Assembly: GCA_047285535.1 (NCBI GenBank)
Contig: JBJBDC010000001.1
Location: 1,184,136-1,248,135, forward strand
DNA: 64,000 bases
Source of the DNA: Synechococcus sp.
GTDB lineage: Bacteria; Cyanobacteriota; Cyanobacteriia; PCC-6307; Cyanobiaceae
Direction of reading: 5' to 3'
Shown here: positions 9,001 through 24,000 of the stretch, piece by piece
How positions within the stretch are numbered: the first letter of the stretch is position 1
Layout: each line of letters starts with the position of its first letter
Made by a program: the position numbers

Positions 9001-12000
9001 AAAATCATGACGGCTTCTTCTTGAATATGTGGCCTTGAAAATACCCAGTCAGCTACTCGAGTAAATTTAGAGATTCCTATCACCCTAACACCAGGTTTAA
9101 TGCCAATCCAACAGTTACCCATAATTGGAACTAAGTGATGAGAACATGCAGAACGGACTGTGATTGGACCAACAGTATAAATCTCATCAAGCTGTTTTAC
9201 ATTCGGAAAACTTGCCACCTTTGGCTGTTGATTGTAGCGACCCTTGAAGACTTCACGGAGATACATTCGAGCAACTCGCTCTGCAGTCTCAGTAGTGTTG
9301 TGATCATTTTCGATGTCAATCACCAAGCTACGAAGAAGATCTCTGACACGATCAGCAACCTCCTTCTCTAGTTCATCCAACTCTCCAGTCTGGATAAAAT
9401 CAGCAATATTGTCATTGGCAAGGAATGAGATGTCTTGATCAATAAGACGTTGGCGAATTCTTTGAGAGACAGAATTGACACTGGTATTAATAGGTGTCAA
9501 AGCACCGTTGGAGAGAGTAGGGATAGTAGAAGTCATGTCAGGGGTGATTTAAAAGGCACCAGTGGCTGGCATCAAAGTGAGATCTTCAACAACTTGTGTT
9601 GCGGGCTGTTCTGCTAGGTGAAGAAGAGTAACAGCAGCTTGGTCAGCGGGAATCATGGCAGCGCGGTCAAAAGAAGATTGGACCGTGGGAGAGTCCCAAA
9701 GTGAGGTATCCACCGCTCCGAGCGTGAGCGTGCAAGCACGAATTCCATTGCATCGCTCCTCCTCAGCGAGGCAGCGCGTAAAACTGGCTAACGCTGCTTT
9801 AACACTGCAGTAAGCACCCCAATTTGGAAAGGCATTACGGGCTGCGTGGCTATTGACATTAATCACGAGCCCACCAGCAGACCTCATTGAAGGAACAACT
9901 GCAGAACACATTTGAAAGACACTGGTTAAGTTGAGCTGCAGCAACCAATCCCAACTCTCCAAGGGCATCTCGAGCAATTTTCCAGTCCAAGCCGCCCCCG
10001 CGTTGTTGATCAAAACAGAAGGAGTTAAACCTTGACCGAGCAATGTAGCCACGCCTTGAGGGATCTCTTCAGGCTTGGAAAGATCAATGGCTTGATAAAC
10101 GATTCGCTGGCCTGAGATAGCCAACGTATCGGTAAGAGTTTGGAGAGATGTTGCATTACGGGACACGAGCAGGAGGTCCCAACCGGATTGAGCAAAAGCG
10201 AGAGCGGCACTGCGGCCAATGCCACGCGTTGCTCCGGTAATGAGTACGGAGGACAATGAACCTCAGCGGTCGAAGCAATCCTAAGAACTTGAATCAGCTT
10301 CTGGCGAGCTGGAATCGATAAACCGCCCCATTGCCCGGAACTTCTGGTAACGCTGATCGCGTAGTTCCTGCGGTGAAAGAACGACCAACTCAGCAAGATG
10401 GCGTTCGAGGGCTTCGCGCAAGGTTTCTCCTGCTTCCAAAGGGGCCCAATTATTGCCCCCGGACGGCTCCGGAAGAACCTCATCAACAACACCGAGGCTG
10501 AGCAGATCCTGTCCGGTAATCCGCAATGCCGCAGCCGCTTCAGGAGCCTTGGCCGCATCACGCCAAAGGATCGATGCGCAGGCTTCAGGACTCGCCACCG
10601 TGTAAACGCTGTGCTCAAACATCAGCAACCGGTCGGCCACACCGATACCAAGAGCTCCACCTGAGCCACCTTCACCAATCACCGTGGCAATAATCGGCAC
10701 ACTCAGTCGGAACATCTCCCTCAGATTCACGGCAATCGCCTCACCTTGACCCTGCTCTTCAGCCAACAGTCCTGCATAGGCTCCTGGGGTGTCAATAAAG
10801 GCAAGCACTGGAAGCCCAAAACGATCGGCATGCTCCATGAGTCGAAGTGCTTTGCGATATCCGCCAGGGGTAGCCATCCCAAAGTTGCGAGCCACGTTTT
10901 CCTTTGTGTCGCGCCCTTTTTGGTGACCTAAAAGCAGTACCGAGCAATCTCCTAAGCGACCAATACCCCCTACCAAAGCCTGATCATCGCTACCACGCCG
11001 ATCACCATGGAGCTCAACCCAATCGTCACAAAACATCTGGATGAAATCCAAAGTGCTTGGTCGATGAGGATGACGGGCAACCTGAATTTTTTGCGCCGGA
11101 GTCAGATTCTGAAAAATCTCCTCTCGTCTACGGGCAGCAAGAGTTTCAAGCTGAAGGAGTTGCTGGCTAACGTCGACCTCAGAGTCTCTCGCGAGCTGAC
11201 GAATCTGCTCAATCTGCTGCTCAAGCTCTACCAGAGGCTTTTCAAAATCAAGTAAAGGGCGGCGTGGCATAAATACAGAAAAGAGGCGGGTCGACCGGTA
11301 ACAACTCAGCCTCGCACAAATCGATCAGGATGAGTGAGGACCAAAACCGCCAGGGGGCTTAGTGATAAGTAATTTCTTGGTCCATCAGCACACGGGCGCC
11401 ATGGCGCAAAGATCCGGTCATTTCCACTCTCTCATCATGAGAAAACTGAACGAACACCATCGCTCTCACTCAGACCGATCACGATCATATTATTGAACTC
11501 AACCGACGCAAAGCGCTCACATGAATCAAGGCAGCATCAAAAGAAACTCAGATCCAATTTATCTTTTACAACCCTCAATCTTGACATCGATAATTCCTTG
11601 ATTCCTGAAATTGCTTCTTTCACACAAGCAGGAAGACAAAGGCAAGATCTGTATGGCTTTAACGCTGCGATCGGCAAGAATCTTGGACAAACAAAAGGTT
11701 AGAATCATTGAAAGGAGTTAGATTAAATCAAAAAACCAATCCTGGGATGAAATAGTCCAAGGTGGAGACAAATCCAAATCAGCAAATGACTGAGAACCGG
11801 AATCACTATCTGCGTCCTGTTTGTTGGTGTGGGGGGATTCTCCGACACCACTGGGTGAAGACATGGAGATCAAACCAAAAGAGGACAGAGCCCTTAACCG
11901 TATTAATTGATCATCGAGAAGAGAAATTCAATCCATTATCGATGCACGCCATGGAGACGTTACTCTCAAACAAAGAAATTGAAAGACAGTGCAGATATCG

Positions 12001-21000: not shown

Positions 21001-24000
21001 GCAACACTGTTACCACTAACCCAAACTTCACCGATTCTGCCATCTTCCAGAAGCGTACAACTCTCTGGATCAGCAACAACAACCACCTGATCTGAGACCG
21101 GAACACCGCTACCTACCAGCGAAGACATTGAGGCATCAGAAGTTTGAGGAACCTCTAAAGCAATATTTTTTGACAATAAATCACTATCGAAATGTCGAAC
21201 AACTGGAAGGCCTGAACGGCTTCCTCCAGTGACAATTAACGTATTTTCGGCCAACCCATAACAAGGCAGAAATGCTTGTTTTTGAAAGCCACATTGCGAA
21301 AACGTTTTGCAGAATTTTTCAATCGTCTGAGAACGAACGGGCTCTGCACCGCTGAAAGCAAGAGACCAATTCTCAAGATTAAGCGCCTCAATCTGTTCGG
21401 GCTTGATTTGCTTCGAGCAAAGGTCATAGGCGAAATTAGGACCTCCACTGGCTACGGCCTTGAAACGAGAAATTGCGGATAACCAGCGAAAAGGGCGTTG
21501 CAAAAAGGCAACGGGAGGCATCAAAATCATCGAGGCCCCAATAAACAGAGGCTGAAGGATCCCTCCGACGAGCCCCATGTCGTGATAAGGCGGAAGCCAA
21601 GACACGGCAGTGGCACCTGCCTCAACACCAAAACATTGATTAATGAACTGCGTGTTTGAGATAAGATTTCCGTGTCCAACCATCACACCTTTGGGCGAAC
21701 CTGTAGACCCAGAGGTGTACTGAAGAAAAGCAAGATCTTCGGGATTTATATTTTTATATGTCCATTGACTTGCACTTTCAAGATCAACACTATCCGTGGC
21801 AATACAATCTATCTGAGGACAATCATCATTGGATATATGCTTTCCAATAGAGTCTTTCAGAGATGATGTCGTCAGAGCGATTGAAGCCTGAGCATCCCGA
21901 ATAATCAGATTCAGGCGCGTGACAAGTTGAGAAGAGCGTGGCGGATAAGCAGGAACTGCTACAACGTTTGCGTAAAGACAACCAAAAAAGCTCGACACAA
22001 ATTCGAGGCTTGGATTATATAAAAGAAGTGCTCTCTTTTTACTGAGTCCTCGTGCTAAAAGACTGGCGGCAATTGCACGGGCCCTTTGATCTAGTTCTGC
22101 AAAAGACCACCGATCAGTTTCTGTTTCCCCGTCCTGCAAGAAGGAGAATGCAAGTCGATCGGGGTGAGCAGCAGCCCTCTCCCGCAGCAAATCGACGAAT
22201 GAGGAGAAGACATGCATCAAGTGGACTTTAAGACGTCGTTGGAGAGGCGAAATGCCCTTCCCAATTAGCTGGACATTGCACCCTGAACCCTAGTGATGAG
22301 CAGGCCATGAAGCTCTGGGCAACGATCAGCGGCATGGATTGTAAGCATTGCTACTGATAGTTGGATGATCGATTGACAATCTTCAGACTCTCCGTTCGTC
22401 TCCAGGAGGTGGCCAACTTGACGCCAACAGGCTTGTAAACAAACGAATCCAGTGCTCGACGAGTGCTGTTTCCAGCTGACGTCCAATGCTGGCATCTGCA
22501 CCACGACTGTCCCCCACAACCCCGGAGACGCTTAAGTCTGCCGTGAACCAAGCGAGAGGTGCAGGCCCTTCAAGACTCCAGCCTTCAGGAGGAGTGGCTG
22601 CTGCTGCCCTCGTGACATGATCACCGTCAACGGGCCGCTGAGTACCGACCAGAGAGGGTTCGAGAGCAAGCATCAGACTGGTTTCAGCCAGCCCCGCATG
22701 CAGACCATGCGCCATCTCGCTCGACGGGATAAGAGACCGGAGTTCTGCGACACCGCTCCATAGAAAACAGGGCAGAACAGCCATGGATGGCGTTTCAACC
22801 GCCAATTCTCGTGCAGCGGCTTGCATTAACCCAATCTGCCCACCATGGGCATTGAACAGCACCAAGCGATTGAGTCCCTGGGAGCACAACTGAGTCCCCA
22901 CCTCGATGATCAACTGGGTCATTAATCCAGAGGACAAACTCAAAGTTCCAGGAAAACCTGCATGTTCCGGAGAGAAACCAATGGATTGAGTGGGAAGACT
23001 CCAAATCGGTAGATGCTGCGGAAGCTTTGACATCACAGAGGACAGAATCCGCTCTGAGAACAAAGCATCTGTCGCCAAAGGCAGATGAGGGCCATGCTGC
23101 TCAAAAGCTCCCATTGGCCAAACCATGGTGGAGCCCGATCGCTGCAATTCAGCCCCGGCCTTAGGCCAGCTCAACCTGTCCAAGCGCCGCGTCATCGAAA
23201 CACCTAAGTGAGCTTGTGCAGTCATGGACCGTCAAGCCTCCCATTTCCTGCCAGACTGTCCTATCGAGGATATTTGAACCCATGGCGGGATCAGGAAGCC
23301 AACAATCCATAAATAACAAGGGGCAAAGCCCGGCAGCTCAGCCGCCGCGCAAGCCATTGCAAGTCATGCATATCAGTCGCAAAGACGAACAGGAACGCCT
23401 TAGCCGTGAAGCAGAAGAAGCAAGGGCAGCCGCTGATGCGGCAACGGCTCGTGCTGTTGAACTAGAACAAGCTGCGCTAAGAGCACAAAGCTCACTAGCC
23501 AATCCTCCACTAGCTGCAACTGCGTTAAGGAAGCCCCCCGCCCTTAACGATGACGCTCAAAGATTTGATACCGATGAGCTCAGTGGAATAAGCATGGCAG
23601 ACCTGCTTGGGCCTGCTGACTCGAACTCAAAAGCCCAGCGGTCCAGCCCTCCTTCGACGAAACCCTCGAACCGCAGCGTTGACGACTTCGACTTTGACGA
23701 AGGGGCTTTTTTAGCCGCACTCGATGCCAATGAACCTGTTGGCACCACAGGAGAAGTCGTCACCGGAACCGTGATCGGAATCGAAAGTGATGGTGTTTAT
23801 GTCGACATTGGTGGCAAAGCCCCTGGCTTTATGCCCAAAAACGAATGTGGTCTCGGAGTGATCACCAGCTTGAAGGAGCGGTTTCCTAAGGGGTTAGAAG
23901 TCGAAGTGTTGGTGACTCGCGAACAAAATGCCGATGGAATGGTCACCATCAGCTGTCGAGCTCTAGCGCTGCGTCAAAGCTGGGAAAAAGTTAAACAGCT

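Follow-up and report, generated by a model that had tools for sequence, protein, structure and literature searches.

Estimates of the ocean hydrocarbon cycle treat picocyanobacteria as uniform alkane producers. The locus analyzed here raises the question of how a Synechococcus came to carry an olefin synthase (Ols) in the very slot that holds the alkane genes aar and ado in its relatives. The genome under study (G000, Synechococcus sp., GCA_047285535.1) is a single closed contig and 99.99% complete; unless stated otherwise, coordinates are positions in the window, the whole stretch of 64,000 nt that was analyzed. We consider it likely, with a probability of about 80%, that a cassette of ols, a DUF6208 gene and a PPTase gene (approximately 11277-22800) has replaced ado-aar by recombination from a congener, that Ols provides a route to 1-alkene, and that the picocyanobacterial Ols goes back to one origin.

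Organization of the locus

Window positions 11277-22530, between accA and a gene of the creatininase family (creat), hold an Sfp-type PPTase gene, a DUF6208 gene and an intact Ols of 2887 aa (Table 1). ORFs and domains thereby bear out the preliminary description, which had placed these three genes in the aar-ado slot. Four ADO-positive congeners (G080, G037, G135 and G109) share the order folE-SDR-accA-aar-ado-creat-S1-Tab2. When G080 and G037 are compared with the window by blastn, alignment extends to 11273-11276 and sets in again at 22531-22543. The left-side homology ends at 11276 for G080, at 11273 for G037 and at 11319 for G374, another Ols carrier of the genus. The accA protein shares 93-94% amino acid identity with ADO-positive congeners, and its gene is, up to the start codon, closer in nucleotide sequence to the own subclade of G000 than to G374; judged by these identities, the accA flank is native to the G000 lineage.

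No remnant of ADO or AAR was detected between accA and the PPTase gene (11271-11761) by tblastn with the proteins of a relative, and the one sigma-70-like match of this region (11565-11594, plus strand) is no more than shuffled sequences yield. The stretch between ols and creat (22221-22382) aligns to G374, not to ADO-positive members of the subclade of G000; a consensus scan, which is a crude test, gave no sigma-70-like or terminator-like match there.

Table 1. Features of the ols locus in G000 (window coordinates).
Feature	Position	Strand	Evidence or remark
accA (acetyl-CoA carboxylase carboxyltransferase alpha)	10281-11270	-	PF03255, 455 bits; conserved left flank
Intergenic accA/PPTase, divergent genes	11271-11761	.	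left boundary of the replacement lies here
Sfp-type PPTase gene	11762-12499	+	PF22624 and PF01648
DUF6208 gene	12583-13554	-	PF19713, 319 bits
Ols, one ORF	13554-22220	-	Pfam domains
Ols TE	13635-14393	-	alpha/beta hydrolase, residues 2610-2862; GHSFG 2683
Ols ST	14715-15362	-	PF13469, residues 2289-2497; PRSGST 2294
Ols ACP2	15507-15704	-	residues 2173-2238; GVDSL 2199 (ACP serine)
Ols KR	16068-16601	-	residues 1874-2051; GGLGAIG 1880, YAAAN
Ols AT	17493-18497	-	residues 1242-1576; GHSVG 1342, HAFH 1444
Ols KS	18990-20090	-	residues 711-1077; DTACSS 871, HGTGT 1009, NIGH 1046
Ols ACP1	20157-20396	-	PP-binding, residues 609-688; GLDSL 643 (ACP serine)
Ols FAAL	20517-22187	-	PF00501, residues 12-411; PF23024, 454-568
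Intergenic creat/ols	22221-22382	.	inside the imported segment
creat, whole gene	22383-23225	-	PF02633, 214 bits; conserved right flank
creat, 3' part (about 420 nt)	22383-22800	-	imported with the cassette
creat, 5' part	22826-23225	-	native to the G000 lineage

The olefin synthase and its companion genes

The Pfam and PDB searches uphold the domain order reported before, AMP-binding/FAAL-ACP-KS-AT-KR-ACP-ST-TE, as well as the structural matches of the ST and TE (4gox_A, 8e-106; 4gbm_A, 5e-93; 3qit_A, 1.4e-67). The entry 4gox, which the PDB titles just 'Polyketide synthase', we take to be the PCC 7002 enzyme. The ORF opens with TTG at 22220, and the ATG one codon on (22217) gives the 2887 aa. 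A FAAL-ACP loading didomain precedes the PKS part, which consists of a single KS-AT-KR-ACP extension module, and a PAPS-dependent ST is followed by a CurM-type TE; no dehydratase or enoyl reductase family is found among the 23 Pfam matches. The PRSGST and GHSFG motifs are invariant across four picocyanobacterial Ols sequences. Between G374 and contig L138, pN/pS is 0.15 over 886 Ols codons, and the 29 environmental variants listed for the ols gene of G000 comprise 19 synonymous and 10 other changes; by these codon comparisons ols is under purifying selection. The Ols of G000 is a further member of a known enzyme kind, found in an informative evolutionary setting.

The PPTase is a two-domain protein, AASDHPPT_N plus ACPS, with both scores above the cut-offs (PF22624, 41.8 bits; PF01648, 40 bits). 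It is the second PPTase of the genome, since PF01648 has two matches, the cassette gene and contig position C1:1746990-1747229. An assignment as HetI was rejected: the score against NCBIfam NF042922 is 94.8 bits at an equivalog cut-off of 370, and the protein is therefore filed as Sfp-type. The gene is also present in the cassettes of G374, L025 and L138-L142, and absent from those of the G345/G058 type. The DUF6208 protein matches positions 5-289 of the 316 in PF19713 (cut-off 25 bits). Its AF2 model (pLDDT 90) has a long helix at the N terminus and two halves that resemble beta-sandwiches, with two uncharacterized proteins as top fold matches (6ans, Z 11.2; 2p3y, Z 9.7). Within the family DUF6208 is confined to the four Ols genomes (4/401), and it is inherited together with Ols.

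By analogy with the known Ols/CurM mechanism, the PPTase probably primes both ACPs of Ols. The FAAL would adenylate a free fatty acid and load it onto ACP1, two carbons would be added by the KS and a malonyl-specific AT, and the KR would give a beta-hydroxyacyl-ACP2. The ST would then sulfonate the hydroxyl with PAPS, leaving hydrolysis, decarboxylation and sulfate loss to the TE. The terminal alkene expected from this route has one carbon more than the fatty acid; C14-C16 acids probably yield 1-pentadecene and 1-heptadecene, which would take the place that pentadecane and heptadecane have in ADO/AAR strains.

Distribution of the two pathways

Profile searches of the closed genome returned no match to ADO (PF11266) and just a 13-bit chance match to AAR (TIGR04058), and tblastn with the ADO and AAR of a relative reached at best 36 bits; the two methods thus agree with the earlier statement that both genes are missing. 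ADO is present in 372 of the 401 family genomes (268 of the 273 of high quality) and in 41 of the 46 genomes of the genus, while full-length Ols occurs in 4/401 of the family (G000, G374, G345 and G058) and in two of the genus (G000 and G374). These figures supersede counts that reflected a smaller sample: Ols in only 2 of 301 genomes, which left out the carriers G374 and G345, and ADO in 207 of 209 high-quality family genomes and in 16 of 16 of the genus, where G374 is a second carrier. High-quality genomes without ADO number five in the family (5/273), four of which have Ols and DUF6208. The remaining one, G386, has neither and is a draft in 150 contigs. The genus has two such genomes among 33, precisely the two with Ols.

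In all four Ols genomes of the family, including G058 as previously described, the cassette lies between accA and creat with the orientation that ado-aar has elsewhere, and ADO is absent. The same site and orientation recur in contigs L025, L028, L030, L031, L141 and L143. The proposal that in picocyanobacteria one locus is occupied by either of the two pathways, in the manner of alternative alleles, thus holds for 4/4 Ols genomes, but not as a peculiarity of that group: Ols, DUF6208 and accA are adjacent in 8/56 non-picocyanobacterial loci (Prochloraceae, Coleofasciculaceae, Pseudanabaenaceae-like). In the environment, metagenome contigs of four studies match the G000 genotype at 99% or more, and one contig of 880 nt spans accA to the PPTase gene. 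As contigs L025 and L029 illustrate, mis-binning of Ols contigs does occur in MAGs.

Recombination footprint and origin of the cassette

The right flank records how the cassette arrived. The sliding identity of the 3' part of creat is 68-76% to G374 versus 45-62% to G080, G037, G135 and G109. In a tree of coding nucleotides 440-840, G000 groups with the G374 subclade (95/97; identities of 72-75% versus 56-58%), whereas for nucleotides 1-400 it falls in its own subclade (96/98; 77-80% versus 57-60%). On this opposite grouping of its halves creat is a mosaic, which indicates that the cassette reached G000 by homologous recombination from a congener. With some 420 nt of its 3' end imported along with the cassette, the trees and identities place the right crossover inside creat, at about 22750-22850. 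GC steps across this junction from 0.527 in the 5' part to 0.586 in the 3' part, so that the imported creat piece is GC-rich, unlike the low-GC3 cassette. The piece is equally close to ADO-positive members of the G374 subclade and to G374 itself, which means that the donor is unsampled, and its 72-75% identity implies either an old transfer or a divergent source lineage. The three Ols-bearing rows share no common creat 3' haplotype (AU p 1.7e-5). In G374, the homology shared with ADO-positive clade-mates runs as far as the accA start codon and begins again no more than about 70 nt from the creat stop. An integrative mobile element or genomic island was considered and rejected: the three cassette ORFs include no integrase or transposase family, window positions 1-40000 contain no tRNA, and no credible repeat flanks the cassette (best, 24 nt at 75%).

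In the ST-TE tree the 11 picocyanobacterial Ols form one clade (98/86), among them L138 and L140, contigs without host flank that were counted in because of the similarity and layout of their cassettes. Its sister (100/99) is L034, the filamentous Lyngbya confervoides BDU141951, and ST-TE identity to non-picocyanobacterial Ols is 41-51%. Marine-type and Cyanobium-type subclades reproduce a host-like split. A single origin of picocyanobacterial Ols is thus supported by ST-TE sequences, and this monophyly relieves the claim of its former dependence on a long-branch DUF6208 tree. G000 and G374 belong to different subclades of the RpoC2 tree (10 and 8 genomes, support 100 for both; a species tree of RpoC2 alone for 30/34 high-quality genomes), and the genus has therefore seen at least two events.

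Our preferred model accordingly has the following form. One crossover would have occurred within creat and the other at the start codon of accA or a little upstream of it. The cassette would thereby have replaced ado-aar through homologous recombination with DNA of a same-genus donor that was related to the G374 subclade and already had the cassette at this locus. Ols would since have passed between picocyanobacterial lineages through the conserved flanks, which would make the two pathways alternative alleles of one site in the family.

Base composition contributes little in G000. The low GC of the cassette stressed in the preliminary description does lie below the genome mean (0.458 versus 0.506); at a standard deviation of 0.041 for 11-kb windows this is about 1.2 sd, 14.3% of such windows have a GC of 0.46 or less, and the feature is unremarkable and weak as evidence. 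It is striking in G374, where the cassette has a GC3 of about 0.37 and host and flank about 0.64. That both cassettes keep a GC3 of about 0.36 despite some 30% divergence in nucleotide sequence, the high GC3 of the G374 flanks and the GC-rich creat piece of G000 counts against our model.

Were the cassette ancestral in the genus or family, with most lineages having reverted to ado-aar, Ols divergence should track that of the hosts. It does so roughly: amino acid identity to G374, G345 and G058 is 72, 48 and 44% for Ols, compared with 76/56/59% for creat and 63/53/52% for Tab2, the Ols tree splits in a host-like manner, and the flanks of G374 are fully native. The presence of ADO in 372 of the 401 family genomes and 41 of the 46 genus genomes would nevertheless require dozens of reversions, the mosaic creat of G000 speaks of import rather than descent, and the GC3 of the G374 cassette sits ill with long residence; we regard old vertical inheritance as unlikely. 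Independent captures from distant cyanobacteria, meeting at one site by chance or through a site-specific mechanism, would suit the filamentous identity of the closest outgroup and the adjacency of Ols, DUF6208 and accA outside the picocyanobacteria. They are very unlikely in view of the monophyly of picocyanobacterial Ols, the same-genus type of creat sequence in the imported tract and the lack of an integrase, tRNA or flanking repeat at the cassette.

It is also improbable, slightly more so than old inheritance, that the synthase is inactive or its product no membrane hydrocarbon, the strain simply lacking hydrocarbons. The crude consensus scan, with no promoter-like match upstream of ols, points that way; the intact ORF with all catalytic motifs, the purifying selection, the architecture shared with characterized Ols and the nearest solved ST being that of an Ols (4gox) point the other. 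Hydrocarbon pathways were, moreover, found in all 142 strains, with none holding both, in the sections of Coates 2014 (PMC3903477) used here. Apart from the mis-binning known from L025 and L029, nothing was found in favor of an assembly or binning artefact, which is hardly conceivable given one closed contig, the same junctions in three other genomes and several contigs, and an environmental contig across the left junction.

Implications

If the enzyme works like its relatives, the makers of terminal alkene in place of alkane would include four or more genomes of the family at species level, along with several metagenome contigs. That congeners exchange a core metabolic module by homologous recombination is directly evidenced by the mosaic flank. 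Because the swap is clean and confined to one locus, it supplies near-isogenic natural pairs such as G000 and G080 (RpoC2 identity 96%), which allow tests of the physiological equivalence of alkane and 1-alkene, of why the pathways never coexist, and of the role of DUF6208. A far-reaching extension would make the creat-accA slot a phylum-wide swap locus, where ols-DUF6208 and ado-aar are exchanged by homologous recombination through conserved flanks. The rule of no coexistence would then stem largely from allelism (one site, one cassette) instead of physiological incompatibility, Ols would depend on DUF6208 as its partner, and Ols elsewhere (e.g., in Pleurocapsales) would reflect secondary relocations. 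This extension is speculative, and we lean against it.

Comparison with known systems

The Ols of PCC 7002 (Synechococcus/Picosynechococcus) and of the other 16 Ols strains has, in the sections consulted of Coates 2014 (PMC3903477), the same FAAL-ACP-KS-AT-KR-ACP-ST-TE order, and these strains are likewise devoid of ADO/AAR. None of the 17 in Table S3 of that study is a picocyanobacterium; G000 differs from them in host family, in the separate Ols clade, in the PPTase within the cassette and in the exact ado-aar slot. A preprint of 2025 on ProPortal and OceanDNA genomes reports no OLS annotation in its accessible part. CurM of curacin A (ST 4gbm, TE 3qit) has in common the ST-TE off-loading by sulfonation and decarboxylation with PRSGST and GHSxG motifs. 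CurM, however, closes a long assembly line as its final module and has no FAAL-ACP loading part (PMC3903477, in the sections consulted), whereas the Ols of G000 is a single synthase that stands alone, with no further PKS gene in the vicinity. Horizontal acquisition has been published for the Ols of Leptolyngbya sp. PCC 6406 (GC 64% versus 55% for the genome), which resembles the present case in lying outside the main Ols clade and in its GC mismatch; a locus-level replacement or recombination footprint is not described in those parts of the paper (Coates 2014, PMC3903477). Klaehn et al. 2014 (PMC4094844) report an ado-aar-accA-SDR-folE cluster in 61% of 181 genomes and, in the portion of the article available, make no mention of Ols at the ado-aar site. 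The accA, SDR and folE genes of this cluster have the same order and strand in G000, which differs in carrying ols-DUF6208(-PPTase) in place of ado-aar.

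Results

In the genome under study (G000), the slot between accA and a creatininase-family gene (creat) is occupied by a cassette that encodes an Sfp-type PPTase, a DUF6208 protein and an olefin synthase (Ols).

Gene content of the accA-creat locus in G000
Feature	Position in window	Strand
folE	8793-9536	-
SDR gene	9549-10256	-
accA	10281-11270	-
Sfp-type PPTase gene	11762-12499	+
DUF6208 gene	12583-13554	-
ols, one ORF of 2888 codons	13554-22220	-
Creatininase-family gene (creat)	22383-23225	-
S1-domain protein gene, then Tab2-like protein gene	beyond creat	

The ols ORF opens with TTG and has ATG next, which makes a protein of 2887 amino acids the probable product. 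Its Pfam matches follow the order AMP-binding/FAAL, PP-binding, KS, AT, KR, PP-binding, sulfotransferase (ST) and alpha/beta-hydrolase, with no dehydratase or enoyl reductase among them. The set of catalytic signatures is complete: both ACP serines are there (GLDSL, GVDSL), along with the KS motifs DTACSS, HGTGT and NIGH, the AT motif GHSVG with HAFH, the KR motifs GGLGAIG and YAAAN, the ST motif PRSGST and the TE motif GHSFG. Among solved structures, the C-terminal 629 residues match the sulfotransferases 4gox (8e-106) and 4gbm (5e-93) and the CurM thioesterase 3qit (1.4e-67). Judged by its sequence, this is a real and intact olefin synthase cassette, whose enzyme belongs to a known kind. Promoter and terminator scans gave nothing above shuffles. 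An 84-codon ORF at 22265-22519 lies partly in the creat-ols spacer and partly over the 3' end of creat. It is probably not a gene; it gave no family match, and a match of 43% is found in G374 (the other Ols carrier of the genus).

Four ADO-positive congeners (G080, G037, G135, G109) share the gene order folE-SDR-accA-aar-ado-creat-S1-Tab2 on the same strands. By blastn, G080 and G037 match the window as far as 11273-11276, with the left limit six bases past the accA start codon, and again from 22531-22543. The G000 genome is a single closed contig of 3,025,339 bases (99.99% complete) in which ADO (PF11266) has 0 matches and AAR (TIGR04058) only a 13-bit chance match. A tblastn search with ADO and AAR of G080 drew a blank in the junction regions and scored at most 36 bits in the rest of the genome, and no ado/aar remnants were found in the junctions or the genome. 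The preliminary description had placed the Ols cassette at the ado-aar site and reported ADO and AAR as absent from the genome; the congener gene order with the blastn limits on both flanks confirms the former, and the searches of the closed genome the latter.

In a family sample of 401 genomes (273 high-quality), ADO is found in 372 (268 of the high-quality ones) and full-length Ols in four: G000, G374, G345 and G058, the last three sharing 72, 48 and 44% amino acid identity with the G000 enzyme, respectively. DUF6208 occurs in these same four and no others, and in all of them the cassette lies between accA and creat. Five high-quality family genomes have no ADO, namely the four Ols carriers and G386, a draft in 150 contigs that is 92% complete and in which neither pathway was found; the remaining 24 family genomes without ADO are 53-87% complete. 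Within the genus (46 genomes, 33 high-quality), two genomes have Ols and 41 have ADO (31 of the high-quality ones); G000 and G374 are the two high-quality genomes without ADO, and the other three are 56-70% complete. These larger sets reveal the earlier figures, a full ST-TE match in only 2 of 301 genomes and ADO in 16 of 16 genomes of the genus, as a sample effect. A second, divergent ADO-like gene (E about 1e-62) lies off the main locus in three genomes of the genus (G223:C1:1332704-1333348, G236:C1:1267976-1268620, G318:C1:1740701-1741345); Coates (2014) likewise notes strains with two ADO homologues.

The history of the locus was read from trees and local identities. Of the 34 genus genomes with a completeness of 90% or more, 30 entered an RpoC2 DNA tree (G398, G236, G223 and G318 left out). 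It places G000 in a clade of 10 with nine ADO-positive genomes and G374 in a separate clade of 8 with seven, both with support 100, which requires at least two changes of state in the genus. Along creat, nucleotide identity switches: between 22383 and about 22800, G000 shares 68-76% with G374 vs 45-62% with its own clade-mates, whereas from about 22820 onward the relation is reversed (78-87% to its clade-mates, 55-66% to G374). Trees of the two creat halves (15 genus rows; G345 and G058 left out) confirm this, the 5' part placing G000 within its own subclade (96/98) and the 3' part with the subclade of G374 (split 95/97). GC changes from 0.527 to 0.586 across the switch, and on the left side sliding identity keeps G000 closest to its own subclade as far as the accA start. 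Taken together, these observations indicate that homologous recombination brought a segment spanning about 11277 to about 22800 into G000, replacing ado-aar, and that the donor was of the G374-subclade type with ols already next to creat.

That donor is not among the sampled genomes, since the imported creat piece is 72-75% identical to ADO-positive and Ols-positive members of the G374 subclade alike, and since an AU test rejects an Ols-linked creat haplotype common to G000, G374 and the metagenome-derived contig L025 (p 1.7e-5 for the 3' part, 4.5e-8 for the 5' part). The flanks of G374 are native, as homology to its ADO-positive clade-mates ends at the accA start and picks up again no more than about 70 nt from the creat stop. 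With no tRNA in window 1-40000 and no flanking repeat or mobility gene at the cassette, nothing suggests a mobile element.

Composition adds little to this for G000. Its cassette has a GC of 0.458 (GC3 0.36), against 0.506 for the genome with a standard deviation of 0.041 for 11-kb windows. As a sign of foreign origin, the low GC given in the preliminary description is therefore weak within this genome, where 14.3% of such windows are at or below 0.46. It is striking in G374 (0.456, GC3 0.37, between flanks of about 0.60, GC3 0.64). The cassettes of G345 and G058 (both about 0.66) are near their hosts, and marine-type contigs range from 0.42 to 0.64. The cassettes of G000 and G374, about 30% apart, both have low GC3 even though each is tied to GC-rich DNA of the same genus. 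Two further stretches of the window stand out. The GC of folE is 0.429 (GC3 0.363), far below that of the adjoining SDR gene and accA (0.52-0.54) and of the G080 folE (0.523), despite 91% protein identity to the latter; a recombination tract of its own or a local drift towards AT may be the cause. The 1-kb stretch 4001-5000 differs from its neighbours as well (GC 0.458, GC skew -0.21, AT skew +0.36).

Near-identical copies of the G000 cassette occur in metagenome contigs from four studies, and one 880-nt contig spans accA to the PPTase gene. Among the listed environmental variants in the G000 ols, 19 of 29 are synonymous, although differences resting on a single low-depth contig may be errors; another 25 variants in the matched stretch as a whole fall outside this list. 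Between G374 and contig L138, which are near-identical, 43 of 2658 Ols positions differ (pN/pS 0.15).

A second PPTase is encoded elsewhere in the G000 genome, so the one in the cassette probably serves the Ols ACPs alone. Between genomes whose Ols are 66-72% identical (compare L018:2944-3648 and L025:12500-13225), the cassette PPTase shares only 39-43% identity and its DNA is not alignable; either its evolution has far outpaced that of the other cassette genes, or it has been exchanged separately. The DUF6208 protein, without an NCBIfam match, is modeled (pLDDT 90) with a long N-terminal helix and two beta-sandwich-like halves, and its fold matches are uncharacterised proteins only (6ans, Z 11.2; 2p3y, Z 9.7; 3u07, Z 8.7). 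DUF6208 is not exclusive to Ols, since eight metagenome contigs carry it without Ols nearby, among ordinary cyanobacterial genes. In four of these eight (L153, L154, L158 and L194, at about 9300-10950 of each contig) the gene immediately before it encodes a CpcT/CpeT phycobilin lyase, and in L153 rbcX and rbcL adjoin it.

Discussion

The single origin proposed earlier for picocyanobacterial Ols, based then on a DUF6208 tree with a long branch, now has broader support. Relatives in genome contigs were retrieved with an ST-TE alignment as query, whereas a single DUF6208 protein returned none. A quick ST-TE tree (77 rows; 7 of 83 loci dropped, four for coverage below 0.85 and three for internal stops) groups the eight Ols with picocyanobacterial flanks (support 90). 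The careful tree of 51 rows combines 11 picocyanobacterial rows, 32 representatives hand-picked from the quick tree and 8 non-picocyanobacterial metagenome rows, the first of 15 that were eligible (a further eight were ineligible, seven for coverage below 0.85 and one for a stop). Here, all 11 picocyanobacterial rows form one clade (98/86), with Lyngbya confervoides BDU141951 (L034) as sister (100/99). The clade comprises a marine-type subclade with PPTase (G000, G374, L025, L138, L140) and a Cyanobium-type subclade without it (G058, L028, L143, G345, L030, L031); L138 and L140 have no host flank and are counted as picocyanobacterial by cassette layout. The 'uncultured Synechococcus' locus L026 has no such flanks, is placed elsewhere in the tree and was rejected as picocyanobacterial.

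Some database assignments deserve mention. L025 (PAFA01000053.1), filed under a Phycisphaerae MAG, has the order S1-creat-Ols-DUF6208-PPTase-accA and, given its picocyanobacterial flanks (S1 86% amino acid identity), is probably mis-binned. The Sphingobacterium-labelled L029 groups with a cyanobacterial Ols. L102, a 160-kb Planctomycetota contig with an Ols-like ST-TE on a long branch, DUF6208 and PPTase, might be a real non-cyanobacterial case.

The same neighbourhood exists outside picocyanobacteria. Among 56 Ols loci not from picocyanobacteria whose contigs reach at least 3 kb downstream, 24 have DUF6208 within 3 kb, and eight of these (L032, L042, L080, L084, L086, L089, L092, L103) also have a same-strand accA within 10 kb, in most followed by the SDR gene and in several by folE too. 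L084 shows the full order S1-creat-Ols-DUF6208-accA-SDR, an arrangement also seen in the metagenome contigs L151, L155 and L161. The swap at the accA locus may hence characterise the phylum. In 61% of 181 genomes, according to Klaehn (2014), the order is ado-aar-accA-SDR, and the available part of that paper does not mention Ols at this site.

In the literature searched, which did not extend to Zhu et al. (2018), we came across neither picocyanobacterial Ols nor Ols beside accA, and our search returned no paper on DUF6208. The 17 Ols strains in Table S3 of Coates (2014) include no picocyanobacterium. A 2025 preprint reports that its screen of ProPortal and OceanDNA genomes turned up no OLS annotation, and picocyanobacterial Ols is unmentioned in the accessible sections of a FEMS review and of Vigneron (2023). 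Zhu et al. (2018) aside, this literature has no precedent for a swap that is precise to the locus, carried by recombination and present in several picocyanobacterial lineages. According to Knoot and Pakrasi (2019), genomes encode one pathway and never both; the swap provides natural near-isogenic material for the question why the two hydrocarbon pathways exclude each other. The Ols of G000 itself has the same architecture as the cyanobacterial olefin synthase described by Coates (2014).
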